From Alphaproteobacteria bacterium (lineage in GTDB: Bacteria > Pseudomonadota > Alphaproteobacteria > SHVV01): DNA of 64,000 nucleotides. The position numbers were made by a program, and so were the translations under genes. The notes under the pieces are model-generated. The model was not told the DNA's origin. It saw only the letters and a list, made by a program, of their open reading frames with translations, and did no database searches. The stretch lies in assembly GCA_965261735.1 (NCBI GenBank), contig OZ253470.1, positions 1,184,001 to 1,248,000 of the forward strand, in the 5' to 3' direction. Positions 23,782-47,685 of the stretch are shown here, one piece after another. Position 1 is the first letter of the stretch, and each line of letters begins with the position of its first letter.

Positions 23782-24849
23782 CCTTGCCTATCCGGTTTAC
23801 ACCCACACCCACTAGGGCTAGAATGGGCGCAACCCGGATATAGGGGAGCGCGCCATGGATGTTCTCGACCGCGCCGATCTCCCATTCCCGCATTCGCTAC
23901 CCGAGTTCCAGCGACTTTTCCCCGATGATGCGGCCTGCGCCGCCTACCTGGAGAAAGCCCGCTGGGGAGACGGCTTTGCCTGCCCGCACTGCGGCACGGC
24001 GGGAGAGCCGTTCCACTTTGAAAACCGCCCTGGCGTCCTGCGCTGCCGCAAGTGCCGCCAGAACACCGGGCTGACGGTGGGAACAGTGATGGAGCGTAGC
24101 CACACTCCGCTGAACGTCTGGTTCTGGGCCGCTTATCTGGTCGCCAGTCAGACGCCCGGCATGTCCGCCGTGCAGTTTCAGCGGCAACTTGGTCTTTCGC
24201 GCTACGAGACGGCCTTTCAAATTCTCCACAAGCTCCGCTCGGGCATGGTGCGGCCCAACCAAGACAGGATCGGTGGACAGCCCAAGAACCATGTTGAGGT
24301 GGACGAAACCTGGGTTGGCGGGCGAACGCGTGGGGAAGGCCGTGGTGTTCACCACAAGGTTCCCGTCTCCTGTGCCATCGAGGTGCGTCATCGAAAGCCG
24401 GGCACCAAGCTCGACAACCGGAAAGACGGACGCTATGCCGGACGCGTTCGGCTCGCCGTCGTGCTCGACCGTAGCGCCGAGTCGCTCTGTGGGTTCGTCG
24501 AGAGCACCGTCGCGCCGCGATCGCTGATCGTTACTGACGATTGGAGCGGCTATGCTGGCCTCGGGAAGCGCGGCTATGAGCACTTCGCTGTTGCCGAGTG
24601 TGGTGATCCAGAGGTTGCCGAGCAATACCTGCCGATCATCCATCTGGTTTTCGCCAACCTGAAGACGTGGCTGATCGGTATCCACCACGGCGTTAGCCAC
24701 CAGCACCTACAAGCCTACCTCAACGAGTTCACCTTCCGCTTCAACAGGCGGTTCTACCCGTTCAACGCCTTCCGCTCATTGCTCGGCATCGCGGGCGACA
24801 CCTCTGCTCCAACCTATGCCGAGCTTTACTCGGGAGAGTGGCGGCACCC
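23782..24849 (+). mobile_element. IS1595 copy 2; last codons and downstream IR deleted
   Basis: Matches copy 1 up to ...GAGTGGCGGCACCC, then joins the antisense strand of the peroxiredoxin gene. Confidence 0.92.
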
Positions 24850-25314
24850 GGCGAGGTTCACCTCGAGCCCTAGCGCCCTGGTAAAGTTGCCGTTTCCGTC
24901 CGCCAGCATCAGGATCTGGCCGCCGACGTGCTGATCTCCGGCCCAGGCACACATGACGAAGGCGTCGTTAACGGCAAGGCAGGCAATCGTGTCGATTCCC
25001 TTCGCCTTGATTGTCGCGGCACTGGCGACGAACCCGGGTAGATGCTGCGCCGAACAGATCGGTGTGAAGGCTCCCGGAACCGAAAACAGTACCACTCTCT
25101 TGCCACCGAAGAGGTCGCCCGTGGAGATCGCCTGCGGCCCCTCGTCGGTCATCGTCATCAGGCTCGCCGCGGGGATCCTTTCACCAATGAGTATGGTCTT
25201 GCGAAGGCCGATCTCGTTCATCTGGGTGGTGAAGATGTTGTCGAATTGCTCCTTGCTGGCCTTGAACAATTCATCGAGTGATGCCGACCCTACGGCGCGA
25301 TTCTGCTCGGTCAT
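24850..25314 (-). pseudogene. Prx5-type peroxiredoxin with a 37-aa N-terminal leader; C-terminus deleted at the IS1595 junction
   Basis: VVLFSVPGAFTPICSAQHLPGF, CLAVNDAFVM.AW, MLADGNG.FT; ATG 7 nt after the upstream stop. Confidence 0.88.
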
Positions 25315-25321
25315 CGCGGCA

Positions 25322-25849
25322 TCACAGCAGCTCGACGCATCGCGCCAACGCCCGCTCCACGGCGCGATGGAATGCCGCTTCCTCTGGATCCACGGTGGAC
25401 CTGCCGCGGGACATCTCTTCAGGCTGAATTGCGAAGGCCACACCGTCCGCGCTTCCCGTGATCTCGTGTCCATCGCCGGACGAATTGATGTGGGCCCTAC
25501 CGAACTGCGACTTGCTGATGTTTTGATCCGCCAGGATCAGTTTGCACAGAACGATGAACTCATCGCCATCGCGGCGGCGATCCGCCACCTCGTAGCGCCA
25601 CCCGTCGCCATAGCGGTCATCGAGGAAGCGCACCGTTTCCGACGATCCCACCGCGGCCGCCGAGTCGGGTTCGGTTGTCTGGGCCACGGGCCGTGCCGTA
25701 TACGGCCCATCGCCCAGCGAATTGCCCTGACGCCCTGTGCCGGCAAGGCTTGATCCTCGGCCGGCATAGAGTTCCTCGAGCCGTTCGCGATTGCGGCCCA
25801 GCATTTCGTCAAATGCCGACGAGTAGCCGGGCCGGCGGTTGGAGACCAT
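25322..25849 (-). CDS. Hypothetical 175-aa protein: amphipathic leader, linker, Rad52/Rad22-like domain
   Basis: Tightly packed between the amidase and prx genes; homologous to the N-terminal extension of the 32334 protein (LDDRYGDGW...VLCKL...SKSQFG.A.IN...RALARC). Confidence 0.8.
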   Translation of the reverse strand: MVSNRRPGYSSAFDEMLGRNRERLEELYAGRGSSLAGTGRQGNSLGDGPYTARPVAQTTEPDSAAAVGSSETVRFLDDRYGDGWRYEVADRRRDGDEFIVLCKLILADQNISKSQFGRAHINSSGDGHEITGSADGVAFAIQPEEMSRGRSTVDPEEAAFHRAVERALARCVELL

Positions 25850-25860
25850 ATGTTCTTGCC

Positions 25861-27924: not shown

Positions 27925-27954
27925 CGGCGCGCCAAAACAGGAGGCGAGACGGAA

Positions 27955-28284: not shown

Positions 28285-28297
28285 CTGGCGCTCACCG

Positions 28298-29392
28298 ATG
28301 ACGGACTACGCTTCCCTCCTGCCGATCAATGTCATAACCGGGTTTCTCGGCAGCGGCAAAACCACCCTGCTGCGGGATTTGTTGCGATCGCCGCACCTAC
28401 GCGACACCGCGGTGCTGATCAACGAGTTCGGCGAAGTAGGACTGGATCATCATCTGTTCCGCCACGTCTCCGAGAGCACGGTGCTGCTCGAGAACGGCTG
28501 CCTCTGTTGCGCCGTACGCGGCGATCTCAAGTTGGCCCTGCACGATCTGCTGTCGAAGCGCGACAAAGGAGAGCTGCCCCCCTTCCGGCGCGTCGCGATT
28601 GAGACCTCCGGCCTCGCCGACCCCGTGCCCATCGCCTACACAATCCTGGCCGAACCGGTCCTGCAACACCACTTCCGCCTCGGCAACGTGGTGACCACGA
28701 TTGACGCGGTGAACGGGGCGGGTCAACTGGATCAGTTCGAGGAATCGGTGAAACAGGTCTCCGTCGCCGATCGCTTGGTGTTGACCAAGACGGACCTCTG
28801 CGGTGCGCCGGAGGTTGCGGTGCTTCGCGATATTTTGAGCCGCCTCAACAAGTCGGCGCCGGTGTTCGAGTCGGTCGCGGAGGGGATCGATCCCGAGCAT
28901 CTGCTGGCGCAGGATATTTACAATCCGGGCGACTACCGGGAAGCAAGCCGATGGCTCGTCGACCGTAGCGAACACCCGGTAAGTGCGGAATGCGAGATTC
29001 TCCACCACCACCACGACCCGGGCATCTTCTCCTTTTGCCTGTGTTTCGATCAGCCCATGGATTGGACTGCCTTTGGCGTCTGGATGACGATGCTCCTCAA
29101 CCGCCATGGCGAAAAAGTGCTCCGCATCAAGGGCATGCTCAACGTTGCCGGCCAAGCCGCTCCCGTGCTTATCAACGGGGTGCAGCACATCGTGCATCCA
29201 CCAGCCCATCTCGACGACTGGCCCGACGCGGATCATCGCTCGCGCATCGTGTTCATCGTTCGTGACATGTCGCGCCGGCGCATCGAGGCTTCTCTGGCGG
29301 CCTTCAACGACCTCGCCAATCCGCGCGCCACCATGGACGCCGAAAACCGACCCGGGCCGACCACGGCCCTCGACTCTGCCAGCGTCGGTTAA
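28298..29392 (+). CDS. CobW/COG0523-family metallochaperone GTPase
   Basis: TGFLGSGKTT, INEFGEVGLD, GCLCC, ETSGLADP, HHHH, LRIKG. Confidence 0.93.
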   Translation: MTDYASLLPINVITGFLGSGKTTLLRDLLRSPHLRDTAVLINEFGEVGLDHHLFRHVSESTVLLENGCLCCAVRGDLKLALHDLLSKRDKGELPPFRRVAIETSGLADPVPIAYTILAEPVLQHHFRLGNVVTTIDAVNGAGQLDQFEESVKQVSVADRLVLTKTDLCGAPEVAVLRDILSRLNKSAPVFESVAEGIDPEHLLAQDIYNPGDYREASRWLVDRSEHPVSAECEILHHHHDPGIFSFCLCFDQPMDWTAFGVWMTMLLNRHGEKVLRIKGMLNVAGQAAPVLINGVQHIVHPPAHLDDWPDADHRSRIVFIVRDMSRRRIEASLAAFNDLANPRATMDAENRPGPTTALDSASVG

Positions 29393-29916
29393 GGGGCCGA
29401 GTCGGACGAAGACACCCGCGGTGGTGGCCGGCGCGGACGCCAGCCGATCCTGAAAGCGCGCACCGCGTGGTGGAGCAGGAAAAACGCTATCGCGAGAATC
29501 ACCAGCAAGATGATGGCGAGGAGCTTGCCGCCAAACCCCGCATCGATGATCGGACCACGGCTCATCAAGTGCTCGCTCAGCATCTCGACGGCTTGCAGAG
29601 TGGCGCCGCCAAAAAAGATCAAGGCTATGAGAATGGCTATCTGTAGGGTATCGAAGACGAGCCCTTCGACCTCAAGATCAGTGGCGGCCCGGAAGATGTT
29701 TCTGCGGAAGGATTGCCAATGGGAGACCGCGTAGCCGATCACCCCGACGAGCGACGCGAACCAGAATATGACGTTGGAAAAATGGATGCGCGGAATACTT
29801 TGGGTCAAGTAATCTTCGAACGGCCGATAAAAATAGAGGAAGATCAACAGTATGACGAGACCAACCAGGATGATCCAAAACCTCGGCCGCTGCCAACTGG
29901 TGCTGTCCTGTGCCAT
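29389..29916 (-). CDS. Hypothetical 4-TM membrane protein (paralog of 43637-44104)
   Basis: Four hydrophobic helices and motifs shared with the paralog; start chosen at MAQDST. Confidence 0.8.
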   Translation of the reverse strand: MAQDSTSWQRPRFWIILVGLVILLIFLYFYRPFEDYLTQSIPRIHFSNVIFWFASLVGVIGYAVSHWQSFRRNIFRAATDLEVEGLVFDTLQIAILIALIFFGGATLQAVEMLSEHLMSRGPIIDAGFGGKLLAIILLVILAIAFFLLHHAVRAFRIGWRPRRPPPRVSSSDSAP

Positions 29917-30261
29917 GATGAGCGGGGCCGCTCCGTCCCGGGGGTTCCAGTAGCTGCTTATCGTCTCGGCGCACCTCGGGCAAGCCAAAAAACGGCTCTC
30001 GCCAACCTCGACCTCAATGCACTGCGGTGAATCCGTTCTCACGGAGCCCGCGCGGACCGAACGCTGGTGTGGCTACGGCGGAGCCGGCGGCGGCATCGAC
30101 CCGCAACCTCGGGCTTAGCTTAGGCGCCGGCTTGACTCAGCCTTTCAGCTACCCAAAGAATGGGAGTTGGGCGGAAGGATGGGCGTAGTCCGAGGGAACG
30201 GGGACGGCATCTCGGTCGATTCCCGGCGCTGCCGCGTGAATTTTGGTAACAAGGAAAGGCC

Positions 30262-32325
30262 ATGAGCAGCCGCCTCGGCATTGATGTGGGTGGGACTTTC
30301 ACCGATCTCTTGCTGTTCAACGAGAGTAGCGGCGAAATCCACCTGCTCAAGACGCCGTCCACGCCCGAAGACCAGTCGGTCGGCATTCTCAACGGCGTCG
30401 AGCGGCTGATCGCCCAATCGGGCATACCCGCGGCCGAGATTCAGACGGCACTCCACGGCACCACGGTATCGACAAACATCGTGCTCGAGGAAAAAGGCGC
30501 CAAAGTCGGCCTGCTGGTCACGGAAAACTTCGAGCAGGTGCTGCATTTGGCGCGGTCGCAGACGCCGGGGCCGCTGGCCGGTTGGATCATCATGATCAAG
30601 CCGGATCCGCTCGCGGATCTGGAGTTGACCCGTGGTGTCCCGGAACGCATCAACGCGCGCGGCGAAATCCTCAAGCCGCTCGATGAAGCCTACGTGCGCA
30701 CCGCCATACCGGACCTCATAGAGGCAGGCGTGGAATCGATTACGGTATCATTACTCCATTCCTACGCCAACGCCGCGCACGAGGTACGGATCAAGGAGAT
30801 CATCCAGGACCTGGGAATCGAGGTGCCGGTTTCGCTGTCCAGCGAAATTCTCCCGGAGTTTCGTGAATACGAGCGGACTCTGGTCACGGTGATGAACGCC
30901 TACGTGCGGCCCAGCATGCGCAGCTATCTGAGGAACTTCGAGGACAAGTTGCGCAGCATCCAGTTTTCGCCCCATGTGAACATCGTGCGCTCCGATGGCG
31001 GACTGATGAGCGTGGAGCGCGCCTCCGAGTCCCCCGTCTACACGATGTTGTCCGGGCCGGCGGGCGGGGTTTCGGGTGCCGCTTTTCTCGCCGCGCTGGC
31101 CGGGAGCCCCAATGCTCTCGGTTTCGACATGGGTGGCACCTCGACCGACGTTTCGCTGATCCAAGATGGCCAACCGATGATCTCGCGCCAGACCTCGCTC
31201 GGCTATTACCCACTGAAGGTGCCCTCCGTCGAGGTACACAGCGTCGGCGCAGGTGGCGGCTCCATCGCCCATGTGCCGATGACCGGCGCTCTGCGCGTCG
31301 GTCCCGAGAGCGCGGGCGCCGCGCCTGGCCCCGCCTGCTACGGTAGGGGCGGCGACCAGCCCACGGTGACGGACGCCAACGTGGTGCTCGGGCGCTTGCC
31401 GCCGAGCCTGCTCGGCGGCGACATGGCGCTGGACGTCAAGGCGGCCGAGGAAGCGGTGGCGAAGATCGGGCGCGCCCTTGGTCTCGACACCTACCAGGCG
31501 GCTCAGGGGATTCTCGATATCGTCAACGAGAACATGTTCGGGGCGCTGCGACTGGTATCGGTGCAGAAGGGTCTCGATCCGCGGGACTTCGCGCTCGTCG
31601 CCTTTGGCGGGGCGGGCCCCCTTCACGGCAATGCCATGGGCGCGCTCGCGCAGTGCTACCCGGTGATCATCCCCCCGACCCCTGGAGTGCTCTCGGCCCT
31701 AGGGTTTCTCTACTCGGACGTAAAGAACGAGTTCGCCAAGACGTTTATCCGCAATCTCAACGAAGTGCATGCCGGCGATGTGACGGAAATCTTGACGCGG
31801 CTAGGCACTGAGGCGACAGCGTGGCTGCGCGAGGAAGGCATCGAGGAGCGAAGCCAGGAGCTGCGCTTCGAGGCCGACGTGCGGTATTTTCGCCAGGGCT
31901 ACGAGATCTCCCTTACCGTGACCCCCAGCACGTTGGTCAATGGCGGAATCCAGGATATTGAGAATCGTTTCGGCGCCATCCACGAACGGCTGTATGGTTT
32001 CAAGTTGGATGCGCCGGTCGAGCTCGTGAACCTGCGCGCCGTCGGTACCGGCCGGGTGGTGAAGATCAAGTTCCCGAGCTTCGAGAAGCAAGGCAGCGAT
32101 CCCTCCCCCGCCATGGTGGATCAACACCGGGTCTACTTCGACGGCAACTTTGTGTCGGCCAACGTTTACGATCGCAACCTGCTCGCCGCGGGCAACCGCA
32201 TCTCGGGCCCAGCGGTGGTCACACAAACGGATTCGACCACCCTCATCCACCCCGCGCACAGCGGAGAGGTGGACGCGTATCTGAACATCTTGATTTATCC
32301 GCAGGGCGCGAGTCCTTCGGCATGA
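30262..32325 (+). CDS. Hydantoinase/oxoprolinase A subunit (ATP-binding), copy 1
   Basis: GIDVGGTFTD, HGTT, SGPAGG, DMGGTSTD, GAGGGSIA, PTVTDAN, AFGGAGPLH. Confidence 0.93.
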   Translation: MSSRLGIDVGGTFTDLLLFNESSGEIHLLKTPSTPEDQSVGILNGVERLIAQSGIPAAEIQTALHGTTVSTNIVLEEKGAKVGLLVTENFEQVLHLARSQTPGPLAGWIIMIKPDPLADLELTRGVPERINARGEILKPLDEAYVRTAIPDLIEAGVESITVSLLHSYANAAHEVRIKEIIQDLGIEVPVSLSSEILPEFREYERTLVTVMNAYVRPSMRSYLRNFEDKLRSIQFSPHVNIVRSDGGLMSVERASESPVYTMLSGPAGGVSGAAFLAALAGSPNALGFDMGGTSTDVSLIQDGQPMISRQTSLGYYPLKVPSVEVHSVGAGGGSIAHVPMTGALRVGPESAGAAPGPACYGRGGDQPTVTDANVVLGRLPPSLLGGDMALDVKAAEEAVAKIGRALGLDTYQAAQGILDIVNENMFGALRLVSVQKGLDPRDFALVAFGGAGPLHGNAMGALAQCYPVIIPPTPGVLSALGFLYSDVKNEFAKTFIRNLNEVHAGDVTEILTRLGTEATAWLREEGIEERSQELRFEADVRYFRQGYEISLTVTPSTLVNGGIQDIENRFGAIHERLYGFKLDAPVELVNLRAVGTGRVVKIKFPSFEKQGSDPSPAMVDQHRVYFDGNFVSANVYDRNLLAAGNRISGPAVVTQTDSTTLIHPAHSGEVDAYLNILIYPQGASPSA

Positions 32326-32333
32326 GGTGAACC

Positions 32334-34625
32334 ATGACTGACCTGAACCCGCCGCGCAGATCGGTCTCGCTGGACGACTTGCTGAAGGCCAACAAGGCGC
32401 AGTTCGACAGTGTCTTCGCGGCCCAGATGAGGGACACGGGCCTGGTGAGCGTGACCCATCGGCCGGCCACGGCAGAGGATCTTGTCTCGGCTAGCCTAGG
32501 GGTCCGGGCGGTCGTCGACGGCGACGATAGTACGGCACTCCTCGACGGGCGGTTTGGCGAGGGTTGGTCATCCGAGGTCGTCGAACACAAGACCGAAGGC
32601 GGCTCGGTCACGGTGCTGTGCAAGCTCGTGGTGGACGGGGTTTCAAAAATGCAGTTCGGTGCGGCACGGATCAACGGCGATCAGGGTGCCGCTCTGCAAA
32701 GGGCGACCGACGAGGCGCTCAAGAAGTGTGCGGCCCTGTTCGGGCCGCGAGAGGGGCTGCCGGAGGCAGAGGCCGGAGGCCCCGCCGCCCGACCGCAAGA
32801 GGCGCCGGCCGCGGGAGCCCAGCCCGATGCCGCCGTGCCCAGCCTCGCCGCCCCCACTAGCCGTGCGCTGGACACGATCACCCTGGATCTCATCGAAAAC
32901 GCGCTGCGCAACGCCCGGCACGAGATGGACGCCGTACTCTTCCGCTCCGCCATGTCACCCGTGATCCGCGAGCAACACGACGAGTTTCCCATGATCACCG
33001 ACCCCAAGGGGCGGATGATCGTCGGCCAGTTCGGCTCCTACGTCGCCGAGATGCTGCGCGAGCAGAACATGCAGGTTGATCCGGGCGACGTCATTCTCAA
33101 TAACGATCCCTTCAAATGCGGCGGCGCCATCAGCCATATCAACGATTGGCTCGTGCTCGTGCCGATCTTTCACGGCAACGAACTTGTCGGCTTCAGCTCC
33201 ATGTTCGGCCACATGATGGACGTCGGCGGCTGGGTGCCCGGCAGCATGCCGACCGCCGCCACGTCGATCTTCGGCGAGGGAATCCGCATCCCGCCGATCA
33301 AGATCTACGCGAAGGGCGAGATCAACAAGGCGGCGCTCGGCATCATCATGAACAACACGCGCACGCCCGAAATGAACTACAGCGACCTCATGGCTATCAT
33401 CGCCGGCTGCCGTGCCGGCGAGAAGCGGGTGATCCAGATCTGCGACCGCTTCGGTAAGGACACCTACATTCAGGCGTGTGAGGCCCTGCTTGAGCGTACC
33501 AACCGCGCGATGCGGCAGCTCATCGTTCAGAACCTGCCCAATGAGCCTCAGTCGTTCGAAGACTACGTAGATGATGACGGCTGCGGCAACGGCCCCTTCA
33601 AGATGAAACTGACCGTGTGGCGCGAGGGCGACGAGGCCTTCTTCGATTGGACGGGGACCTCAGATCAGGCGCCGGGTCCGATCAATTTCTTCCTCAACGA
33701 GGGCATGTTCAAGATGTTCATCGGGGTCTACATGATCATGGTGTTCGACCCCCAGATTCTCTTCAACGACGGATTCTACGACCTCATTCACGTGACCCTA
33801 CCCAAAGGGTCGCTCGTGCACCCGGAGTTCCCGGCAGCGCTGGGCTGCCGCACGCACGCCCTCGCCCGCCAGTTCGACGTCCTCGGCGGCGCGCTGAGTA
33901 AAAACGCGCCGGAAATGGCCACTGCCGCCGGCTATGGCTCAAGCCCTCACTTCCTGTACTCGGGCGTTGACGGCGATGGCCGCCCGTTCCAGCTCATGGA
34001 GATACTGTTTGGCGGGATTCCCGGCCGCCCGGTAGGCGACGGCATGGATGGCCACTCGTGGTGGCCGCTATTCGAGAATATTCCCACCGAATACCTCGAA
34101 ACCTACTATCCGATGATCATCGAAAACTACACCACGCTAGCCGACACCGGCGGCGCTGGGAGGCACCGCGGCGGCAACGGCGTCGAAAAGGTTTACTTGT
34201 TGTTGGAGAACGGCGAGATCTCCATCCACGATGACCGCCATCTCACCCAGCCGTGGGGGATTCTCGGAGGACAACCGGGCGCTTGCTCGGAAAAATGGCT
34301 GGAGAAAGAGGACGGGTCCAGGGAGCCGTTGCCCTCGAAGGTGGACAACGTAAGAGTGCGCGGGGGCGACAGGATCATCTTCCGCACCGCCGGCGGCGGC
34401 GGCTGGGGCGACCCATTGGAACGCGAGCCGGCAAAGGTGCGCGGCGACGTGGTGCGCGGTCTCTTGACCGTGGGCGCCGCCCAGGAACGGTACGGCGTGG
34501 TCATCGGCAGCGTCGGGCTCACCATTGACGACCGGGCGACCCAGGAGTTGCGCGAGAAGCTGAAAGGGAATCGAGGGACCCTCCCGGTGTTCGATTTTGG
34601 TGCGCAGCCATCGGGTCATGCATGA
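32334..34625 (+). CDS. Hydantoinase/oxoprolinase B subunit, copy 1, with ~178-aa N-terminal extension
   Basis: Catalytic part starts at LDTITLDLIENAL; NDPF...SHIND, GHMMDVGG..PGS, AGGGGWGDP; GAGGTG RBS. Confidence 0.93.
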   Translation: MTDLNPPRRSVSLDDLLKANKAQFDSVFAAQMRDTGLVSVTHRPATAEDLVSASLGVRAVVDGDDSTALLDGRFGEGWSSEVVEHKTEGGSVTVLCKLVVDGVSKMQFGAARINGDQGAALQRATDEALKKCAALFGPREGLPEAEAGGPAARPQEAPAAGAQPDAAVPSLAAPTSRALDTITLDLIENALRNARHEMDAVLFRSAMSPVIREQHDEFPMITDPKGRMIVGQFGSYVAEMLREQNMQVDPGDVILNNDPFKCGGAISHINDWLVLVPIFHGNELVGFSSMFGHMMDVGGWVPGSMPTAATSIFGEGIRIPPIKIYAKGEINKAALGIIMNNTRTPEMNYSDLMAIIAGCRAGEKRVIQICDRFGKDTYIQACEALLERTNRAMRQLIVQNLPNEPQSFEDYVDDDGCGNGPFKMKLTVWREGDEAFFDWTGTSDQAPGPINFFLNEGMFKMFIGVYMIMVFDPQILFNDGFYDLIHVTLPKGSLVHPEFPAALGCRTHALARQFDVLGGALSKNAPEMATAAGYGSSPHFLYSGVDGDGRPFQLMEILFGGIPGRPVGDGMDGHSWWPLFENIPTEYLETYYPMIIENYTTLADTGGAGRHRGGNGVEKVYLLLENGEISIHDDRHLTQPWGILGGQPGACSEKWLEKEDGSREPLPSKVDNVRVRGGDRIIFRTAGGGGWGDPLEREPAKVRGDVVRGLLTVGAAQERYGVVIGSVGLTIDDRATQELREKLKGNRGTLPVFDFGAQPSGHA

Positions 34626-34720
34626 GGCCGGCGCAAGGAACCATGCGTTAGACGGATAGGCGGCTACCTATTCCATCCCTGGAGGCAACGCCGACCCATC
34701 GCAACAGCGGGGGCTATACG

Positions 34721-37537
34721 ATGCTCGACATAGCGATCCCAATCCTCATCTTCGCGATCATTGTCATCGCCATCCTGTATGTCGTCTCAATCTGGATTTA
34801 CAAGCGTTCGCCCACCAACATGGCATTCATCCGCACCGGTTTCCTGGGCACCAAGGTATGCCTGGGCCGGGGCGCTCTGGTGTTTCCGGTTTTCCACGAG
34901 GTCACTTGGGTTTCCCTGGAGACGATCAAACTCATCGTAAGCCGCGCCCGTGAGCAGGGCGTTCTCACAGCCGACAAGATCCGCATCGACGTCGGCGCCG
35001 AGCTCTACGCCCATGTCGGCCACACGCCCGAGGCCATTCTCACGGCGAGCCGGAGTTTGGGCGAGAAGACATTCGACGCCGAGAAGGTACGCAACCTGCT
35101 CGAGGCCAAGGTCGTCAGCGCGCTCAGGAGCTACGCGGCGACCAAGACCCTTAGCGAGCTGCACGAAAACCGGGACGCCTTTGCCCGCGAAATCAAAGCT
35201 AGTGTGACGGAGAGCTTTGAGGCCAATGGCCTCACGCTTGAGGAAGTGACGATCGTCACCATGGAGCAAACGCCAAAGGAGTACTTCAAGACCGACAACG
35301 TGTTCGACGCCGAGGGGCTCAAGATCATCACGGAAATCACTTCCGATGCCCGTAGAGAGGTCCACGACACCGAGAAGCGCACGACCGTGTCCATCCGCCA
35401 GAAGGACCTGGACACGCAACTCGAGCTCCTCGAAATCGAACGGCAGGAGGCCGTCGCCCGGGCGGGCCAGGACAAGGCAGTATCCAACGAGCAGGCGCTT
35501 CAGCTCGGCCAAAAGCAGATCTACGTTCTCGACCAGCGCAAAGCCGTCGAGGAAAAGGAGATCGAGAACGAGAAAGCGCTGGAGCGCATGCGGACCGATC
35601 GCGATCTGATCATCACCGAAGAGGCGAAGAAGCGCGAGGCTTCCGAGATCCAAAAAGAGTTGGCACTAGAGCAGGAGCGCAAGGACCGGGAGATTGCGAT
35701 TATCGCCAAGGCGAGGGAAGAAGAGCTGGCCAACATCGCACGCAATCTAGCTCTCGAGCAGGCTGAGAAAGATCGCCAAATCGCCTTGATCGCCAAGGCG
35801 AAGCAGGAGGAATTGGCCGATATCGAGCGAGCGCTGGCACGCGATCGGGCCGCGAAAAACAGCGAAATCGAGCTCATCGCCACGGATCAGGAACGCCAGC
35901 AGACTGAGATTCAGCGTGCCACGGCGGTTATGGCCGAGGAGGAGGCGGCACGCGATCGGCGCCATCAGGCTGGTGAGGAGGCCGCCATATCCATGCGCAG
36001 GCGTAGCCTCCAGACCCGCCTCAGCACGCTTGACCTGGACAAGGACGAGGCGTTCGCCGAAGCCCGCCAGGAGCAAGAGGTGTCCAACGAAAAGGCGCGC
36101 GTACTCAGCGAACAACAGCGCTTCATCCTCGAGCAGCGTTGGCAAGTCGAAGAAGAAGAGATCAACAAGGCGCGGGCGGTCGAGGCCGCCGAAATCCACA
36201 AGGAAGCCGGAATTATCGAAACCATGAAAACACGCGAGGCCGCCGAGGTGCGCCGTGCCCTGGCCCGCGAGCAGGAGGAAAGGGACCGTGAGATCGCGCT
36301 GGTCGCCAAGTCGCAGGAGCTCGAACAGGCGGAAATCCGCCGCAAGTTGGCGGGCGAACAGGAAGATCGCGACCGCCAGCTCGCCCTTGTCGCCAAGGAG
36401 GAAGAGCTGCGACGTGCCGAGGTGAGGCAGGCCCTGGCGGTCGAGCTCGAGGAACGAGCCCGCGAGATCACGCTCATTGGCAAGGAACAGGAGCGCGAAA
36501 TAGCGGATATCGGTCGCTTTCTGGCGCGCGAAAAGGAGGAACGCGACCGCGAGATCGCGTTGGCCGAAAAAACTCGGCAGCTGGAGGAAGCGGAGATCAA
36601 GCGCCTGGAGGCCTCCGCAAAGAGGGAGCGGGCCCAGCACAACGTGGAATCGGTGAGCCTCCTCGCCGACGCCGAGCGCACCAAGAACATCGAACGCGTC
36701 GAAGCCGAAAGGTTGGCTGAAAGCCGTCGGATCGACGAGGAAAATAAGGCCCAGATCAACCGCATGCACATGCTGGCTCAAGCCGAGACGCGGAAGCTGT
36801 CGGCTGAGCAGGAATCCGATGCGACGCTCATCAGAGCTCGCGCTACGAGCGAGGCCCAGAAGATTACCGCCGAGGGGATCGAGAAGGAGGCGGGGGCCAC
36901 AGGCCGGGCCGAAATGGAGATCGAAGCGCTGCGTGCCGCCAACGCCCGGCGCATGCTCGAGGCCGAGGCTTCAGGCCTTGAAGCCAAGGCGGTCGCGCTG
37001 AAGAAGTACAACGAGTCCGGGGCCTTCCTGGAATTGGCAAAGATGCGTATCGAGGCCGAGCGCGACATCCACATCGATCAGGCCAAGGCCATGGGGAGCG
37101 CCCTGCAGGGTGCGCAAATCCGCATGTATGGCGGCGAGAATGGCACCGTCGATACCATTCGCAGCATGTTTACCTCTGGGTTCGCGCTCGGCGAGGTTCT
37201 GGAGGGGGTGGCGCAGTCCTTACCCGAGGGCTTGCGCGGGCGATTCAAGGACAACGGCCTCAGGGGTCTTTTCGGCAAGCCGTACGGGACCAGCGATTTC
37301 AAGCATTCCATCGAGGACTTGAGCAAGCTGGTCCAGAAGAGCTTGCGTACGCGCAAAGACAAGGAGATCCCCTTCGCGGAAGCCGTGACCATTTTGCAGG
37401 AAAAGGCCGGCGGGGATGACGGCCAGGCGAAAGCGGTCGGCCTTCTCAAGGAGATGAACGAACAGGGGCAATTCGACGACCTTTCCTTTGACAAGGTGTG
37501 GGCGCTTATAAGAGCCGCGGCAAAGTCGGCGGACTGA
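34721..37537 (+). CDS. Very long flotillin/YqiK-like SPFH protein (938 aa)
   Basis: N-terminal TM, AFIRTG.LG.KV...PVFHE, LT.DKIRIDV, ALRS.AA...L.ELH..R..F, NGL.LE.V, N.FDAEGL..IT; long E/R/A/K helical region; IRMYGG flotillin C-domain. Confidence 0.9.
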   Translation: MLDIAIPILIFAIIVIAILYVVSIWIYKRSPTNMAFIRTGFLGTKVCLGRGALVFPVFHEVTWVSLETIKLIVSRAREQGVLTADKIRIDVGAELYAHVGHTPEAILTASRSLGEKTFDAEKVRNLLEAKVVSALRSYAATKTLSELHENRDAFAREIKASVTESFEANGLTLEEVTIVTMEQTPKEYFKTDNVFDAEGLKIITEITSDARREVHDTEKRTTVSIRQKDLDTQLELLEIERQEAVARAGQDKAVSNEQALQLGQKQIYVLDQRKAVEEKEIENEKALERMRTDRDLIITEEAKKREASEIQKELALEQERKDREIAIIAKAREEELANIARNLALEQAEKDRQIALIAKAKQEELADIERALARDRAAKNSEIELIATDQERQQTEIQRATAVMAEEEAARDRRHQAGEEAAISMRRRSLQTRLSTLDLDKDEAFAEARQEQEVSNEKARVLSEQQRFILEQRWQVEEEEINKARAVEAAEIHKEAGIIETMKTREAAEVRRALAREQEERDREIALVAKSQELEQAEIRRKLAGEQEDRDRQLALVAKEEELRRAEVRQALAVELEERAREITLIGKEQEREIADIGRFLAREKEERDREIALAEKTRQLEEAEIKRLEASAKRERAQHNVESVSLLADAERTKNIERVEAERLAESRRIDEENKAQINRMHMLAQAETRKLSAEQESDATLIRARATSEAQKITAEGIEKEAGATGRAEMEIEALRAANARRMLEAEASGLEAKAVALKKYNESGAFLELAKMRIEAERDIHIDQAKAMGSALQGAQIRMYGGENGTVDTIRSMFTSGFALGEVLEGVAQSLPEGLRGRFKDNGLRGLFGKPYGTSDFKHSIEDLSKLVQKSLRTRKDKEIPFAEAVTILQEKAGGDDGQAKAVGLLKEMNEQGQFDDLSFDKVWALIRAAAKSAD
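35660..35920 (+). repeat. 29-aa (87-nt) degenerate repeat block 1 in the SPFH protein, 3 units
   Basis: LALEQERKDREIAIIAKAREEELANIARN / LALEQAEKDRQIALIAKAKQEELADIERA / LARDRAAKNSEIELIATDQERQQTEIQRA. Confidence 0.85.
36260..36607 (+). repeat. 29-aa degenerate repeat block 2 in the SPFH protein, 4 units
   Basis: LAREQEERDREIALVAKSQELEQAEIRRK / LAGEQEDRDRQLALVAKEEELRRAEVRQA / LAVELEERAREITLIGKEQEREIADIGRF / LAREKEERDREIALAEKTRQLEEAEIKRL. Confidence 0.88.
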
Positions 37538-37557
37538 GCCGGCGCTCGGGACAGGGC

Positions 37558-38640
37558 ATGACGCAGCACGACGTCGTTCTGAAAGGCGTGGACAAGACCT
37601 TCGTGGGCGACGTTCGTGCCGTGATCGACTTCAATGCCGAGATCGAGCACGGCGAGTTCGTAGCCATGCTCGGGCCGAGCGGCTGCGGCAAGACCACCAT
37701 GCTGCGCCTGATCGGCGGGCTCGAAGAGGTGACCGCGGGACGCATCTACATCTCCGAGCAAGACGTGACGGACCTGCCGCCGTCGCAGCGCGACACCGCG
37801 ATGATGTTTCAGAGCTTCGCGCTCTTCCCGCACCGCACGGTGCTGCAGAATGTTGAGTTCAGTCTCAAGACCAAGGGGCTGCCGAAAGACGAGCGCGCGC
37901 GCCACGTGTGGGAGATGCTCGAATTGGTGAGCCTCGCCGAGCTCGCCAACCGCTATCCCCGTGATCTGAGCGGAGGGCAACAGCAGCGCGTCGCCCTGGG
38001 CAGGGCTTTGATCGCCAGACCGACCGTACTTCTACTCGATGAGCCGCTCGGCTCTCTCGACTACAGCCTGCGCCAAGCCATGATGGTCGAGCTCAAGAAG
38101 ATTCAGCGCGAGCTGGGAATCACCTTCATCATGGTCACCCACTCCCAGCAGGAAGCGTTGTCCATGGCGGACAAGGTGATCGTAATGAGCGATGCCGTGA
38201 TTCAGCAGATCGGCACGTCGCGGGAAATCTACGAGCACCCGCGAACCAAGTTCGTGGCCGAATTCGTCGGCAACAACAACTTGTTCCAGGGGACCGTCCG
38301 ATCGCGCAGCGGTTCCATCGTGTTCGTGGAAACCAATGGCCACTTGTTCTACGTGAGAATCCCCGAGCACATGCGCCAGGTGCCGATCGGCAAGGAAGCG
38401 TACTTCTCGGTGCGAGCCGACCGCATGCACACGGGCGAACAACCGGCCATGGCCAATCGGATCGAAGGCGAGTACGTCACCACCGAATTCATGGGCTCGC
38501 TGGAGACCGACGTTTTCGAGATCGCGCCCAGGATTTTCGTCCACGTCGAGCAGCACCGTAGCGCGTCGGATCGCGACTACAACATGGGGGACCGCGAAAC
38601 CATCTGCTGGGCGGCCGATGCGGGGGTGCTGCTCGACTAG
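37558..38640 (+). CDS. ABC transporter ATP-binding protein (PotA-like)
   Basis: GPSGCGKTT, LSGGQQQRVALGRAL, LLLDEP, VTH; TOBE-like C-terminus. Confidence 0.93.
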   Translation: MTQHDVVLKGVDKTFVGDVRAVIDFNAEIEHGEFVAMLGPSGCGKTTMLRLIGGLEEVTAGRIYISEQDVTDLPPSQRDTAMMFQSFALFPHRTVLQNVEFSLKTKGLPKDERARHVWEMLELVSLAELANRYPRDLSGGQQQRVALGRALIARPTVLLLDEPLGSLDYSLRQAMMVELKKIQRELGITFIMVTHSQQEALSMADKVIVMSDAVIQQIGTSREIYEHPRTKFVAEFVGNNNLFQGTVRSRSGSIVFVETNGHLFYVRIPEHMRQVPIGKEAYFSVRADRMHTGEQPAMANRIEGEYVTTEFMGSLETDVFEIAPRIFVHVEQHRSASDRDYNMGDRETICWAADAGVLLD

Positions 38641-38652
38641 GAACCTCGATCG

Positions 38653-39480
38653 CTATCGCGAGCGGCGATAGAGGATGGTGTAGATCGCGACGAACAGAGC
38701 GATCATGGACAACGAAAAAAGCGTCGAGGCGGTGCCGAGCGCAAACAGCGTCGGCCGGATGCGCTGGGCCGTGGCGGCGTTGATGTCGAGCGGCAGTGTG
38801 TTGTACTGGCCCGAGAGCAGAGTCGTGCGCGCGAACTCGTCGTAGGAAAGCGTAAAGCCAAAGAGAGCAGCCGCCACGATGCCAGGCATAATCAGCGGCA
38901 GCGTCACCTCCCTGAACACGGTCCATTCGCTGGCGCCCATGTCGCGGGCCGCCTCCTCGACACTCTCATCGAAGCGGTTGAAAACCGCCATCATGACCAG
39001 GAACCCGAACGGCAGCGTCCACACCACGTGGACGCCCAAACCCGAGGACCACCACGCCGGTGCAATCGCCACCTGCTTCAGCAGGGTCGCGAGCCCGAGA
39101 CTGAGCAGGATCCCCGGCACCATGAGGCCCGCCAAGATCGTGTAGAACAAGAGGCCCGAGCCTGGGAACGGTTTGCGAAATGCCATCGCCAACATGGTGG
39201 AGAACAGGGCGGTGACGACCATCACGATCAGCGCCAGAATCAACGAGCGCAGCAACGCCCCCTGCATGTCGCCGACCACCGAGGGCTCAATCAGCTTGTT
39301 CCACCAGTACAGGCTGACGCCGCGCATGGGAAAGCTCACGCCCCCTCGGCGCCCCTGGAACGAAAGGATGAACATGGCGATCATCGGCCCATAGATGAAG
39401 AGGAGGAACAGGATGTAGTAGGCGCTGAAACCGGTCTTGATCCAGGCCTTCTTTCTCCTTTCCGGGGTCGAGCGAGCCAC
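38653..39480 (-). CDS. ABC transporter permease (PotC-like)
   Basis: EEAARDMGA loop, FTLSYDEF; multiple TM segments. Confidence 0.92.
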   Translation of the reverse strand: MARSTPERRKKAWIKTGFSAYYILFLLFIYGPMIAMFILSFQGRRGGVSFPMRGVSLYWWNKLIEPSVVGDMQGALLRSLILALIVMVVTALFSTMLAMAFRKPFPGSGLLFYTILAGLMVPGILLSLGLATLLKQVAIAPAWWSSGLGVHVVWTLPFGFLVMMAVFNRFDESVEEAARDMGASEWTVFREVTLPLIMPGIVAAALFGFTLSYDEFARTTLLSGQYNTLPLDINAATAQRIRPTLFALGTASTLFSLSMIALFVAIYTILYRRSR

Positions 39481-39481
39481 C

Positions 39482-40462
39482 TCAAAGCTCCTTGCGAATG
39501 TCGACCAGCCTCAGGATGATGACCACGCCGATCATCATGGCGAGCATCAGCATGAGGGCGTTTACCGCGGCGAAGGGATAGTTCGCTATACCGTAATAGT
39601 TCAGGATCACCGTCCCCGCTGTGCTGGTTTTTCCGCCGTACACCACAACCGCGGTCGCGAACTCCCCCATGATCAGCACGAAGATGAAGATCATTCCGAT
39701 GGCCACCCCCGGGAGTGAGAGCGGGCCGATGATCTCGCGGAAAATCTGGAACGGTTTGGCGCCCATATCGCGCGCCGCCTCGAGGATCGTCTTTTCGATT
39801 TTCGCCAGCGAGAAAAAGATGGGTCCGACGCACAGCACAACGTAGAGCTGCACCAACGCCATCGTGTAACTGAACTGCGAATACAGCAGGAACTCGACGG
39901 GCTTGTCGATGATGCCCATGTCGAGCAAGGCCCTGTTGAGCAGGCCGCGCCGCCCCAGCATGGGCAGCCAGGCCACGGCGCGGATCAGGTAGCTGGTCCA
40001 GAACGGCACCATGCAAAACAGAAACAGCGTGATCTGCCACTTGAAGCTCTTCACCTGCATGGCGAGGAAATAGGCGATCGGGTATCCAAACAGCAGACAG
40101 AAGAGCATCACGACAATGGTGAATTTGAAAGTCGTCCAGAGAGTCCGGACAAAGATGCCTGGGGTCAGAAACCCAACGGAGGAGGGATCGAGGAATCCCT
40201 CGACGGTGAAGTAGTCCGCGTAGTGGCGGAGGGTCAGATCGGGCTCCATGCCGTGGCCCGTGGACTTCCAAAAGCTGAAAACAACGATGCTGGCCAAGGG
40301 CACAACCAGGAACAGCAGCAGCCAGACGACGGCGGGCGTAATCAGCCAGCCCACGGGGAACCCAGCCTGTCGCCAGGTTTTCGCGGCCCGGGCCTCTGTT
40401 TCCGGCGCCGTCGGCTGGCTGCCGATCAGCCCTGAGTGGTGCGCATGCTCGGCTTGCTGCAT
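39482..40462 (-). CDS. ABC transporter permease (PotB-like)
   Basis: VPFWTSYLIR, LEAARDMGA, PLSLPGV; start approximate. Confidence 0.92.
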   Translation of the reverse strand: MQQAEHAHHSGLIGSQPTAPETEARAAKTWRQAGFPVGWLITPAVVWLLLFLVVPLASIVVFSFWKSTGHGMEPDLTLRHYADYFTVEGFLDPSSVGFLTPGIFVRTLWTTFKFTIVVMLFCLLFGYPIAYFLAMQVKSFKWQITLFLFCMVPFWTSYLIRAVAWLPMLGRRGLLNRALLDMGIIDKPVEFLLYSQFSYTMALVQLYVVLCVGPIFFSLAKIEKTILEAARDMGAKPFQIFREIIGPLSLPGVAIGMIFIFVLIMGEFATAVVVYGGKTSTAGTVILNYYGIANYPFAAVNALMLMLAMMIGVVIILRLVDIRKEL

Positions 40463-40494
40463 ACCAGTCAAGATTCAAAAGGCACGGAAGGACT

Positions 40495-40529
40495 AGGACC
40501 GGGCAAACCGGTGGGATTTGCCCGGTCCT
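40495..40529. other. 13-bp perfect hairpin between the SBP and permease genes (probable mRNA-stabilising or attenuating element)
   Basis: AGGACCGGGCAAA-N9-TTTGCCCGGTCCT. Confidence 0.6.
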
Positions 40530-40640
40530 TGGGGAGACGGCAGATCCCTGGGGACGCCACCGGTTCTCTAGGCGGGCGCGGCCGAAGCCGCCCGCACCCG
40601 CCACGACTACCGGGCCATCGGTCCGGCAACAAACATCGGA

Positions 40641-41945
40641 TCAGGCCGCCAGAAACTCCGTCCAGCGCTTTACCAGATAATCGTTCTCGTCCATCAACGA
40701 GTTCCACACGGCGATATTGCTGAAGCGGTCCTGGTAGGAGCCGCCATCGCGGATTTCTCCCTTGGGCACAATGACGGTCCCGAACGGATCGGACAGTTCT
40801 TTGGCGGCGGGTTTCCCGTCGTACCAGTAATCCCACTCCTCGGGTTCCAAGTTCTTCCTCACTGGATCCAGCACCGACATGTAGTACGCCTGACGGGCCA
40901 CAAAGGCGCCCGGCCAGCCGCTCAGCCACCAGTTGATGTATTCGTATGCCGCGTCGAGCTTCGCACCCGTGGCCTTGGCGGAAATGGCCAAGCCGCCATG
41001 CCAGCCGCGCATGCCTTCTTTCGGCGAGGCGTAGATGCATTTTACGCCCTCCGCCTTGATGGCCGTCACCGCCGGAGACCACATGCTTTCAAGAGCCACC
41101 TCGCCGCTCACCATCAGGTTGACCGATTGGCCGAAGCTCTCCCAGAATGCCCGGAAGTGACCCTCCTTTTTCTTCTTGATCAGGAAATCGGCCATGAAAT
41201 CGATCTCCTCCTTGGTCATGTTGCCCTTGTCGCCAAATGTGCGCAGGCCCAGCGCCTCGATCCCCATGGCCGCGTCCATGACACCGATCTGGGGTACGTT
41301 CAAGAGCGCTACGCGACCCTTGAAATCCGGGCTGAACAACTCGGCCCAGGATTCGATTTTCCGCCCGGTCTCATCGGGGTTGTAGCCAATCGAATCCGCG
41401 TTGTGCCAGGCCGGGACCATGGATACGTAACGCGACGGTCCCTGCACCCGATTACCGTCCTCGTCGAGCCAAAGGTGGCGGAACGGGGCGTCGCCCTGCC
41501 CGAGGTTCGAGCTGGGGGTCAGCTTACCGGTCTTTGACAGGTTGGTGACGTTGTCCCACTCCTTGATCCGCCGTGTGTCAATGGGCTGCCACACCTTGGC
41601 TGGAATCATAAAGTCCATATCGTTGTAGTAGCCCTCGGCCACATCATACTGGTCGTTCTGGTTCAGCAATTTGGCCACAAAGGGGCCGTAAACCAGCGCC
41701 TGGCCGCGAACGGCGAAGCCAAGATCCTTCGAGGCTTGGCTCTGGATCTCATTGATGATGCTGACGGCGAGGCCAACGGTGCGTACCGTTTCAGCCCCTT
41801 GGGCGATATGCGGGAAACCGCTGACGAGCGCCCCTGCCGCAACCGCGGTGGCAGTGGTGCCGATAAACTCGCGACGACTTACGCCCTTTTTGGGGGCGCG
41901 CTTCTTTCGATGAGTCTGGCCTGATTTCGCTTTATGCTCGGCCAT
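40641..41945 (-). CDS. ABC transporter substrate-binding protein (PotD/PotF-like), Tat-exported
   Basis: SRREFIG twin-arginine signal; SWAELF...KGRVAL, PKEG..GW, AAYEYINWWL; GGAGG RBS. Confidence 0.9.
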   Translation of the reverse strand: MAEHKAKSGQTHRKKRAPKKGVSRREFIGTTATAVAAGALVSGFPHIAQGAETVRTVGLAVSIINEIQSQASKDLGFAVRGQALVYGPFVAKLLNQNDQYDVAEGYYNDMDFMIPAKVWQPIDTRRIKEWDNVTNLSKTGKLTPSSNLGQGDAPFRHLWLDEDGNRVQGPSRYVSMVPAWHNADSIGYNPDETGRKIESWAELFSPDFKGRVALLNVPQIGVMDAAMGIEALGLRTFGDKGNMTKEEIDFMADFLIKKKKEGHFRAFWESFGQSVNLMVSGEVALESMWSPAVTAIKAEGVKCIYASPKEGMRGWHGGLAISAKATGAKLDAAYEYINWWLSGWPGAFVARQAYYMSVLDPVRKNLEPEEWDYWYDGKPAAKELSDPFGTVIVPKGEIRDGGSYQDRFSNIAVWNSLMDENDYLVKRWTEFLAA

Positions 41946-42160
41946 CGATTCTCTCCTCCCGTTGACAACGTGGGTTCCTGTAGAGACGCCCGTTGAAGCT
42001 TGAATAAATCCTAGGGAAGCCGCCTCCAAGAGTCCATCCAAACATCATCGCCGGCGCCAGCAGCGCAGCCGTCAAAGCCTTTGCCTCGCCGCGATAGCCG
42101 CGCGCATACTGGCCGCCGGTCGAGCGCTAGATCGAGGCCGAGACTGCCCGGGAGGATGTC

Positions 42161-43627: not shown

Positions 43628-43636
43628 GCGGCGGGC

Positions 43637-44104
43637 TCAGGGTTGCTGCGTGGCGGGACGGATGATCTTAAGCAGCCAAAAAATGATGCAAAACACGCCG
43701 GTCAGGATCACCAGCGCGGCGACGGCGCCAAGGCGCTCGCCGAACCCCGCATCGAGGGCGTACTCCTGCCGCAGAAGATGGACGCAGAGGATTTGAACCG
43801 CCTGCAGTGTCGCGCCGCCACTCAGTAGGATCGCGACGAAGGTGGAGCCCCGTAGCGAACTCAGCACCATGGATTCGATGCTGCGCTGCTGCACGATGTG
43901 GACGCGGTAGGCGTGCCAGTGATAGGTACAAAACCCGATGATGCCGATGATCAACGCGACCCAGAAGATCGCATTCTCGAACCTTATTCCATAGACGACC
44001 AGCTTGAACAAGTCCTCAAAGGGCTCGTAAAAATAGAGAAACATCAAGACAACAATGAAAAGCAGGAAGCCCACGAGCGTCCAAAACCATTGCCACCCAG
44101 TCAT
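43637..44104 (-). CDS. Hypothetical 4-TM membrane protein (paralog of 29389-29916)
   Basis: Shared FLYFYxPFED, FxNxIFW, GGATLQAV, DAGFG. Confidence 0.82.
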   Translation of the reverse strand: MTGWQWFWTLVGFLLFIVVLMFLYFYEPFEDLFKLVVYGIRFENAIFWVALIIGIIGFCTYHWHAYRVHIVQQRSIESMVLSSLRGSTFVAILLSGGATLQAVQILCVHLLRQEYALDAGFGERLGAVAALVILTGVFCIIFWLLKIIRPATQQP

Positions 44105-47673: not shown

Positions 47674-47685
47674 CGCCGGGCCCCG

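Follow-up and report, generated by a model that had tools for sequence, protein, structure and literature searches.

Structures of SPFH cages are available for flotillin, HflK/C, prohibitin, stomatin and erlin. What determines the size of such cages, and what role most bacterial ones have, are questions raised by a gene of an alphaproteobacterium of the SHVV01 lineage (assembly GCA_965261735.1, contig OZ253470.1, positions 1,184,001 to 1,248,000; this whole stretch of 64,000 nucleotides is referred to as the window). The gene encodes a giant flotillin-like SPFH protein of 938 amino acids. Why is this protein so long, and why is it encoded among hydantoinase-type genes instead of beside the usual NfeD-type partner? 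We find that it is the third gene of a conserved unit, hyuA-hyuB-SPFH-potA-like ATPase, inside an apparent cyclic-amide catabolic island. Judged from its sequence, it is an ordinary flotillin-like protein with three acquisitions: a duplication of about 200 residues, an expansion of 29-residue units and a new end domain.

The gene order was surveyed in 46 loci from a species-representative genome collection, searched by tblastn with the proteins of the window. hyuB lies directly upstream of the giant gene in 45 of the 46 loci and the PotA-like ABC ATPase gene directly downstream in 43, the three misses being contig ends; a hyuA match is present in 42. The hosts comprise Rhodospirillaceae, Xanthobacteraceae, Bradyrhizobium, Rhodobiaceae and Minwuiaceae metagenome-assembled genomes together with the gammaproteobacterial Ectothiorhodospiraceae. 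The giant keeps its place between hyuB and the ATPase gene even though the proteins of the loci are 54–71% identical and the outer flanks differ. A preliminary description of the locus had noted hyuB as the upstream neighbour in place of a partner gene, a view that has to be revised given this conservation; its observation that no NfeD or YqiJ gene lies nearby is correct.

In the window the gaps between hyuB and the SPFH gene and between the SPFH and ATPase genes are 95 and 20 nucleotides, and no terminator-like site was detected on the forward strand between hyuA and the ATPase gene. A promoter scan gave one site upstream of hyuA, no more than shuffled sequences give, and Rfam had no match in positions 24000–44000. 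One metatranscriptome contig (34516–34839) bridges the hyuB–SPFH gap and another crosses the SPFH stop codon. The contigs stem from two runs of a single study and cover the gene only piecemeal, so that gaps in coverage carry no meaning; they are weak evidence for an operon, with DNA carry-over possible. One contig (run X19) is short of one base at position 34670 in the hyuB–SPFH spacer, probably owing to strain variation or an assembly error.

The usual partner was also looked for in the rest of the genome. There are four SPFH genes: a stomatin-like gene next to the sole NfeD gene, an adjacent pair taken from its arrangement to be HflK/HflC, and the giant, which is about 1.08 Mb away from the NfeD gene. 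YqiJ_OB had no match anywhere in the genome, and a YqiJ profile built from the proteins of eight class-mates found nothing in the genome, in the 46 giant loci or in nine longer loci plus the window. By comparison, the gene directly upstream of 16 ordinary-length relatives from the same class encodes a YqiJ_N+YqiJ_OB protein in eight cases, a PEP_hydrolase/UPF0261 protein in three, a rhodopsin in two and another protein in three. The rhodopsin genes are found at loci L066 and L067, in agreement with the title of a paper on a "flotillin-associated rhodopsin" (PMC10308929). The PEP_hydrolase/UPF0261 genes are located at L064, L069 and L075, and one of them is fused to an ABC ATPase domain. Giants were detected in 12 genomes of an even 300-genome sample of the class, belonging to about ten families, and in neither of the two genomes of the window's own family; ordinary relatives are present in 26 further genomes.

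The length of the protein resides mainly in its stalk. As described before, this is a long, nearly continuous charged helix: residues 220–800 (about 580 residues) contain 41.5% D/E/K/R, no proline and 14 glycines. Another 22% are I/L/V/M/F/W/Y, which occupy fixed positions of a repeated unit. BLOSUM autocorrelation is strongest at a lag of 29 residues, both over the whole helical region and in every sub-region examined; lags of 58 and 87 come next, and 11, 18, 40 and 47 after these. A profile of the unit detected seven full copies starting at residues 303, 332 and 361 (array A) and at 503, 532, 561 and 590 (array B) with 39–50 bits, and degenerate partial copies only in the flanks of both arrays. 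The earlier count of seven 29-residue repeats (3+4) in 938 residues is borne out by both analyses. One stripe within the unit runs through positions 5 (A/L), 8 (I/V), 12 (L), 16 (Q), 19 (K/R), 23 (I), 26 (I/V) and 1 (K). Tandem Repeats Finder reported nothing in the giant gene at the DNA level, and the repeats are therefore old and not an assembly artefact.

A further autocorrelation peak was observed at a lag of 200. The modules formed by residues ~222–420 (A) and ~422–640 (B) align over their full length with a score of 375, and each aligns to the single stalk module of P0137, the nearest relative of ordinary length (645 residues). BLASTP matches residues 492–837 of the giant to residues 267–580 of P0137. 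A comparison of 62 giants with 40 ordinary Band_7+Flot proteins by hhalign (probability 100, E = 6e-84) aligned giant residues 9–797 with columns 9–481 of 602 and contained one large template gap opposite residues ~313–560. The giant is therefore a flotillin-like protein of the ordinary kind to which an internal duplication, a unit expansion and a new end domain were added. Its stalk arose from an ordinary flotillin-like stalk through an internal tandem duplication of about 200 residues and the gain and loss of 29-residue units.

The natural variation of the family follows the same unit. A word-indexed search yielded at least 1027 homologs at E ≤ 0.001 among 8000 candidates scored. Lengths among the 120 listed homologs are 851 (1 protein), 907–915 (5), 936–946 (46), 965 (8), 994–996 (51) and 1023 residues (9), which are 29-residue steps corresponding to 4, 6, 7, 8, 9 and 10 units; these classes were assigned by length, as a 15-bit score threshold miscalls some 938-residue proteins as 3+3 or 2+4. 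In representatives of the length classes the unit profile counted 2+2, 3+3, 3+4, 3+5, 3+6 and 3+7 copies. Array B is thus the most variable with two to seven units, and array A stays at two to three. On a FastTree phylogeny of the first and last 300 residues, with the repeats left out, unit number changed at least 18 times, compared with 45–58 times for shuffled labels, although weak branches may inflate this figure. The comparison of repeat numbers among homologs, suggested in the preliminary description, agrees with its proposal that the protein is lengthened in register-preserving units. Equally long homologs proved to be common, but the unrelated contexts that had been considered for them did not appear: the context is the same.

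An exhaustive search of 50%-identity representatives placed all full-length giants in one cluster. Ranked below this cluster are fragments and then ordinary proteins of 480–745 residues at 29–40% identity, and 129 of 149 representatives had no match to the 29-residue unit. In the stalks of the ordinary relatives the period is 11 residues, the strongest lag in 57 of 113 cases, with 22 and 33 next. With its 29-residue unit the giant therefore truly departs from this pattern towards a straighter helix. The two periods correspond to 11/3 = 3.67 and 29/8 = 3.625 residues per turn. If the helix is undistorted, the pitch of a contact stripe is approximately 300–540 Å for the 11-residue period and about 780 Å or more for the 29-residue period, the latter stripe being almost straight. 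Helix periods above 3.6 give right-handed winding, which fits the right-handed barrel of the solved flotillin wall. The hydrophobicity spectrum within the arrays has peaks at 3.62 and at 4.14–4.18, both harmonics of 29. Opposite-charge pairs in the helical region are enriched at i,i+3 (z = 3.9) and not at i,i+4 (z = 1.2). If fully extended, the 539 modeled helical residues would span about 81 nm, with 4.35 nm (8 turns) per unit.

The N-terminal part of the protein was readily assigned. SPFH/Band 7 (PF01145) is the sole Pfam match (residues 45–190, 60.3 bits against a cut-off of 23.6). A Foldseek search with the model, part of which is of low confidence in this region, retrieved the Band 7 domain of flotillin-2 (1win, E = 1.1e-5, template modeling (TM) score to target 0.70), stomatin (4fvj, TM score 0.77–0.81) and the flotillin complex (9bq2_A, 402 columns, E = 1.1e-4). 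By sequence, nothing in the PDB was matched at E ≤ 0.01, and a profile search gave only rows with E of 0.12–0.47. According to the positive-inside rule, the protein would have an N-out, C-in topology. The flotillin C-domain of the preliminary description is homologous to ordinary flotillin-like proteins by BLASTP and hhalign, but it does not reach the cut-off of Pfam Flot (PF15975; 15.1 bits versus 27, residues ~730–812). No protein in the whole genome does so, and the NCBIfam FloT equivalog was not reached either (18.2 bits versus 700). Flot is carried by 8 of 10 ordinary-length relatives, and the corresponding region of the giant aligns to them. Taken together, the alignments show a member of the SPFH superfamily whose homology to bacterial flotillins extends over the full length of the latter. 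Because both thresholds are missed and an NfeD-type partner is absent, we call it flotillin-like and not a FloT or YqiK ortholog.

The extra helical part at the C-terminus, also pointed out before, proved to be a domain of its own. Residues 838–938 modeled alone give a compact five-helix domain with a predicted local distance difference test (pLDDT) value of 85 and a predicted TM score (pTM) of 0.74, and the domain is kept in all 43 loci that contain the 3' end of the gene. Among the 149 representatives its profile matched fragments of giants only. It has no Pfam match, Atlas scores did not exceed 0.80, and no stand-alone relatives of 55–177 residues were found. Fold searches gave no PDB match; the best Foldseek hit had an E-value of 1.3 and the best VIA-align hit a Z-score of 5.2, which is within the noise quoted for helical models. 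The lack of a fold match does not demonstrate a new fold. For the full-length protein, AlphaFold2 (62 homologs) predicted helices at residues 259–435, 445–632 and 650–797 with a pLDDT of 63.7 and a pTM of 0.26.

A further conserved element is located on the neighboring enzyme. HyuB has about 170 extra N-terminal residues that are unmatched by the solved homologs found, PDB matches starting at residue 167 or later. They begin with an almost invariant amphipathic helix at the very N-terminus, which is followed by a variable linker, an α/β core and an Ala/Pro-rich linker. The core of the window's protein scored 20.4–20.7 bits with Pfam Rad52_Rad22 (PF04098, cut-off 20.3), and an Atlas feature search returned Rad52/Sak clusters (0.93–0.94), with 19 of 30 matches in the Rad52 set. 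The helix is present on HyuB in all 42 loci that contain the 5' end of hyuB, three of them without the core, and begins at the initiator methionine in 40 of the 42 matches. In a six-frame scan of the 5.03 Mb genome, the helix profile matched three open reading frames (ORFs) below E = 1e-9, the next match having an E-value of 0.8. These ORFs are all located less than 10 kb from the giant gene and encode HyuB, a 175-residue protein and a peroxiredoxin-type protein. The 175-residue protein is 31% identical to residues 1–114 of HyuB over 122 residues, and similar small genes exist in other genomes. One genome encodes a HyuB with the helix but no core, and there a stand-alone helix-plus-core gene lies beside the four-transmembrane gene described below. 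The N-terminal module of HyuB and the giant occur in the same 12 of the 300 class genomes, the module being found in none of the 288 others; these genomes are kin, and the co-occurrence is not a statistical test. The N-terminal extension of a second HyuB in the window, HyuB2, matches the core profile (E = 1.5e-6) and had no match in the genome-wide scan with the helix profile.

Based on these results we lean towards the following explanation, which we regard as somewhat better than an even bet: the giant is a length-tunable SPFH ring or cage in a HyuAB-ABC operon that organizes or encloses a pathway at the membrane. By analogy with the solved SPFH cages, the protein would form a ring-shaped oligomer at the cytoplasmic side of the inner membrane, its wall consisting of parallel helices that stand side by side. 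A 29-residue unit would change the length of this wall without rotating the contact seams, and the natural variants would differ by up to ~26 nm in wall length. The taller cage of straight parallel helices proposed in the preliminary description is plausible on the same analogy. As the gene order suggests, the giant may have replaced the usual YqiJ/NfeD partnership with a dedicated role in the island and may hold together or enclose the ATP-dependent, ring-opening enzyme HyuAB and the ABC importer at a membrane patch. More speculatively, the N-terminal helix that HyuB shares with two other proteins of the island could serve as a docking tag, with the end domain of the giant as its receptor. 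The end domain is a natural candidate: every one of the 43 complete genes encodes it, none of the ordinary relatives tested has it, and it has no recognizable fold relative. A clade with 4 to 10 units of identical length would offer a natural series for relating stalk length to cage geometry. Through this clade a bacterial flotillin is also tied to an ATP-dependent enzyme of the hydantoinase/lactamase type and to an ABC ATPase, in place of its usual partner, NfeD.

Several observations weigh against this explanation. Arrays A and B are mutually out of phase (200 = 6 × 29 + 26). The value of 29/8 = 3.625 had been taken as a sign of a straight helix; a peak at 3.62 is indeed present in the arrays, but it shares power with that at 4.14–4.18, and over residues 220–800 no hydrophobic period rises above shuffled controls. 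The AlphaFold2 model is poor, of low confidence and interrupted in its helix at residues 436–444 and 633–649, and the thresholds of both Pfam Flot and NCBIfam FloT are missed. On the side of the operon, permease and binding-protein genes are adjacent in only 10–11 of the 46 loci. The Rad52_Rad22 match is borderline, with 5 of 30 aligned HyuB members at E ≤ 0.01 and no PDB profile match to Rad52, and the helix-bearing peroxiredoxin-type gene was found in this genome only, among 10 examined. Finally, the giants form a single 50%-identity cluster, and their loci are kin and not independent.

For this last reason the conserved gene order may go back to a single island that was inherited or transferred, with no functional constraint behind it. 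The giant would then be a general membrane-organizing flotillin that merely travels with a mobile catabolic island, its position being due to common descent or block transfer, a possibility that we take seriously but consider clearly less probable. It would account for the single cluster, the patchy distribution over 12 of 300 class genomes with none in the two of the same family, and the transposase genes that flank the island in the window, and the ordinary relatives indeed have varied neighbors. A mere passenger, however, would not be expected inside an operon with short gaps, in a place that is kept at 54–71% protein identity while the outer flanks differ. Nor does it explain why the usual YqiJ partner is absent from every giant locus examined and why the clade-specific end domain and the putative HyuB tag co-occur.

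A different architecture of the stalk has to be considered as well. The three AlphaFold2 helices, connected by low-confidence loops, could run up, down and up again as segments of ~150–190 residues and form a thicker-walled cage of about ordinary height, and the first break is indeed close to the boundary between modules A and B (residues ~420–422). We consider such a folded-back stalk rather improbable. With two to seven units in array B and two to three in array A, antiparallel pairs would be mismatched by up to ~100 residues. This speaks against a tight A/B hairpin, as an argument and not as a test. Furthermore, the helical region is free of proline, and at a pTM of 0.26 the packing of the helices in the model is uninformative. 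That there is no cage at all and the stalk is a single long helix rich in charge, or a simple coiled coil of two or three strands, serving as spacer or tether between the membrane and a partner of the end domain is quite unlikely: the high charge and the enriched i,i+3 pairs would suit it, and repeats of 29 residues occur in the segmented coiled coils of SF-assemblin and β-giardin (PMC2119799), but the i,i+4 pairs are not enriched, hydrophobic residues occupy fixed unit positions, and the SPFH domain is retained together with the flotillin-type C-terminal segment, a part described in a preprint (10.1101/2024.05.09.593390) as stabilizing cage oligomerization.

The ring or cage in the HyuAB-ABC operon could, in a bolder version, be the shell of a membrane-attached enzyme compartment with helix-tagged cargo. 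The end domain or the inner wall would capture the helix-bearing proteins, namely HyuB, the peroxiredoxin-type protein and the small adaptor. HyuAB would use ATP to open cyclic amides within the cage, above the ABC importer that brings them in, and each 29-residue unit would add a step of 4.35 nm to the height of the cage. We regard this version, which draws on analogy, as tentative and on the whole doubtful. Cargo tags of encapsulins and microcompartments consist of a short terminal helix and a flexible linker and are found on several enzymes encoded beside the shell gene. The N-terminal helix of HyuB resembles them in this pattern, without homology, and an SPFH assembly would be membrane-bound, unlike encapsulin and microcompartment shells. 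To our knowledge, SPFH assemblies do not load soluble enzymes through a tag. If true, it would make the giant the first SPFH assembly to take up soluble cargo by means of a tag, much as encapsulins and microcompartments do, and the shared helix is in any case a candidate docking peptide for the recruitment of soluble enzymes by SPFH assemblies.

The features discussed here and the neighboring genes are collected in Table 1.

Table 1. Positions of the giant SPFH gene, its parts and the associated genes in the window (aa, amino acids).
Feature	Position	Strand	Basis
Giant flotillin-like SPFH gene, 938 aa	34721..37537	+	ATG start, ORF and translation
N-terminal hydrophobic membrane anchor, residues 4–27, then K-R	34730..34801	+	Translation; AlphaFold2 helix 2–29
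SPFH/Band 7 domain, residues 45–190	34853..35290	+	Pfam, Foldseek
Helical module A, residues ~222–420 (~80 unique residues plus array A)	35384..35980	+	Lag-200 autocorrelation, local alignment to module B
Array A, three 29-residue repeats, residues 303–389	35627..35887	+	Repeat-profile matches, 41.6–45.6 bits
Helical module B, residues ~422–640, tandem duplicate of module A	35984..36640	+	Autocorrelation, alignment to A and P0137
Array B, four 29-residue repeats, residues 503–618	36227..36574	+	Repeat profile
Flotillin-type C-terminal helical/oligomerization region, residues ~650–835	36668..37225	+	BLASTP, weak Pfam Flot, hhalign
Clade-specific C-terminal helical domain, residues 838–938	37232..37534	+	Separate structure model
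hyuA, hydantoinase/oxoprolinase A type, 687 aa, first operon gene	30262..32325	+	Pfam
hyuB, 763 aa, N-terminal extension of ~170 aa	32334..34625	+	Pfam Hydantoinase_B, residues 180–694
HyuB N-terminal module: helix ~10–32, variable linker, α/β core	32334..32753	+	Alignment
PotA-like ABC ATPase	37558..38640	+	NCBIfam, Pfam; start 21 nucleotides past SPFH stop codon
Small membrane protein, divergent from hyuA	29389..29916	-	Translation; about four hydrophobic stretches by eye
Stand-alone helix-plus-core protein, 175 aa, downstream of isochorismatase-family gene	25322..25849	-	Genome profile scan
Peroxiredoxin-type protein, helix motif at N-terminus	24826..25314	-	Pfam Redoxin; helix profile E 3e-10
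Second isochorismatase-hyuA-hyuB set: isochorismatase-family (49819–50505), hyuA2 (47686–49764), hyuB2 (45433–47673)	45433–50505	-	

The island looks like one for the catabolism of cyclic amides or N-heterocycles, because of the affinities of HyuAB, a dihydropyrimidinase-type amidohydrolase and the second isochorismatase-hyuAB set. HyuA and HyuB are nearest to caprolactamase- and N-methylhydantoinase-type enzymes, below the equivalog cut-offs; for HyuA the match to the NCBIfam caprolactamase alpha model is below cut-off, and the closest PDB entry is 7hk5. The amidohydrolase (42161–43627) passes the model for dihydropyrimidinase/D-hydantoinase. After hyuB2 there is an ORF of 353 residues without a Pfam match (44254–45315). 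Permeases, a binding protein and the dihydropyrimidinase were matched in 10–12 of the 46 giant loci. The ATPase gene is linked more tightly to the SPFH gene (43 of 46) than to its presumed own transporter genes (10–11 of 46).

A cobW-type GTPase was matched in 29 of the 46 loci and the small divergent membrane gene in 38 of them and in all nine longer loci. The encoded protein has no Pfam or NCBIfam family and could be a membrane partner of the system. It was considered as a hidden YqiJ or NfeD and rejected, as it has about four hydrophobic stretches and neither a YqiJ/NfeD nor any other domain. In nine 20-kb regions from other genomes, hyuA, hyuB, the ATPase gene and this four-transmembrane gene are all present, accompanied by a polysaccharide-deacetylase-family gene in eight and by cobW and an isochorismatase-family gene in seven each. 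The extended order reads [small module protein, isochorismatase-family hydrolase] on the reverse strand, [polysaccharide-deacetylase-family, cobW] on the forward strand, [four-transmembrane protein] on the reverse strand and [hyuA, hyuB, SPFH, ATPase] on the forward strand.

The island block is probably mobile. Just upstream of it lies a run of transposase genes (15767–24934), with the Mutator family twice, DDE_3, an IS66 fragment and IS1595, and among them a Y-family polymerase gene (21282–22481, reverse strand). Downstream, at 50518–51453, an IS1595 zinc-ribbon is joined to a CN_hydrolase remnant.

Among known proteins with a repeat of this length, the segmented coiled coils of SF-assemblin and β-giardin have 29 residues per repeat in a long α-helical rod. 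They are eukaryotic cytoskeletal filament proteins whose repeat is interpreted as four heptads and a skip residue (PMC2119799); they have no SPFH domain and give no sign of homology to the giant.

Our literature search found no paper that links SPFH proteins or flotillins with hydantoinase genes, and none on the 29-residue quantization, the duplication, the end domain, the hyuAB/ATPase operon or the shared helix. The sole paper it found that names giant SPFH proteins is that of Hinderhofer et al. (2009, PMC2636767), whose passages describe "giant SPFH2 proteins" of 800–1000 residues with a strongly expanded coiled-coil as subgroup SPFH2b, and SPFH2 members without identifiable NfeD in 17 genomes. 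With 938 residues and homologs of 851–1023 residues, the giant fits the description given there and may belong to the same group. Giant SPFH proteins as such had thus been noted earlier, which the preliminary description had missed; the passages mention no repeat unit, duplication, end domain, hyuAB/ABC context or shared helix.

To the bacterial flotillins FloT/YuaG and YqiK the giant is homologous along their whole ordinary length at 29–40% identity, and it probably has the same cytoplasmic orientation. It differs from them in lacking a YuaF/YqiJ partner, in its 29-residue instead of 11-residue period and in being ~300–400 residues longer.

The closest structural comparison is that with the eukaryotic flotillin-1/2 cage (9bq2), an assembly that has been solved, whereas the giant is known here from its sequence and from single-chain models. 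In the passages of the preprint (10.1101/2024.05.09.593390), 44 charged helices, parallel and lacking heptads, form the wall of this cage as a right-handed barrel that spans 186 residues; the cage is 22 nm high. In both proteins an SPFH fold lies next to the membrane, followed by a long helical region that is charged and free of heptads and by a conserved C-terminal segment. In place of a wall of 186 residues, however, the giant has ~540 modeled helical residues, with a 200-residue duplication, 29-residue units and an extra end domain, and it is encoded by a single gene and not by a hetero-pair.

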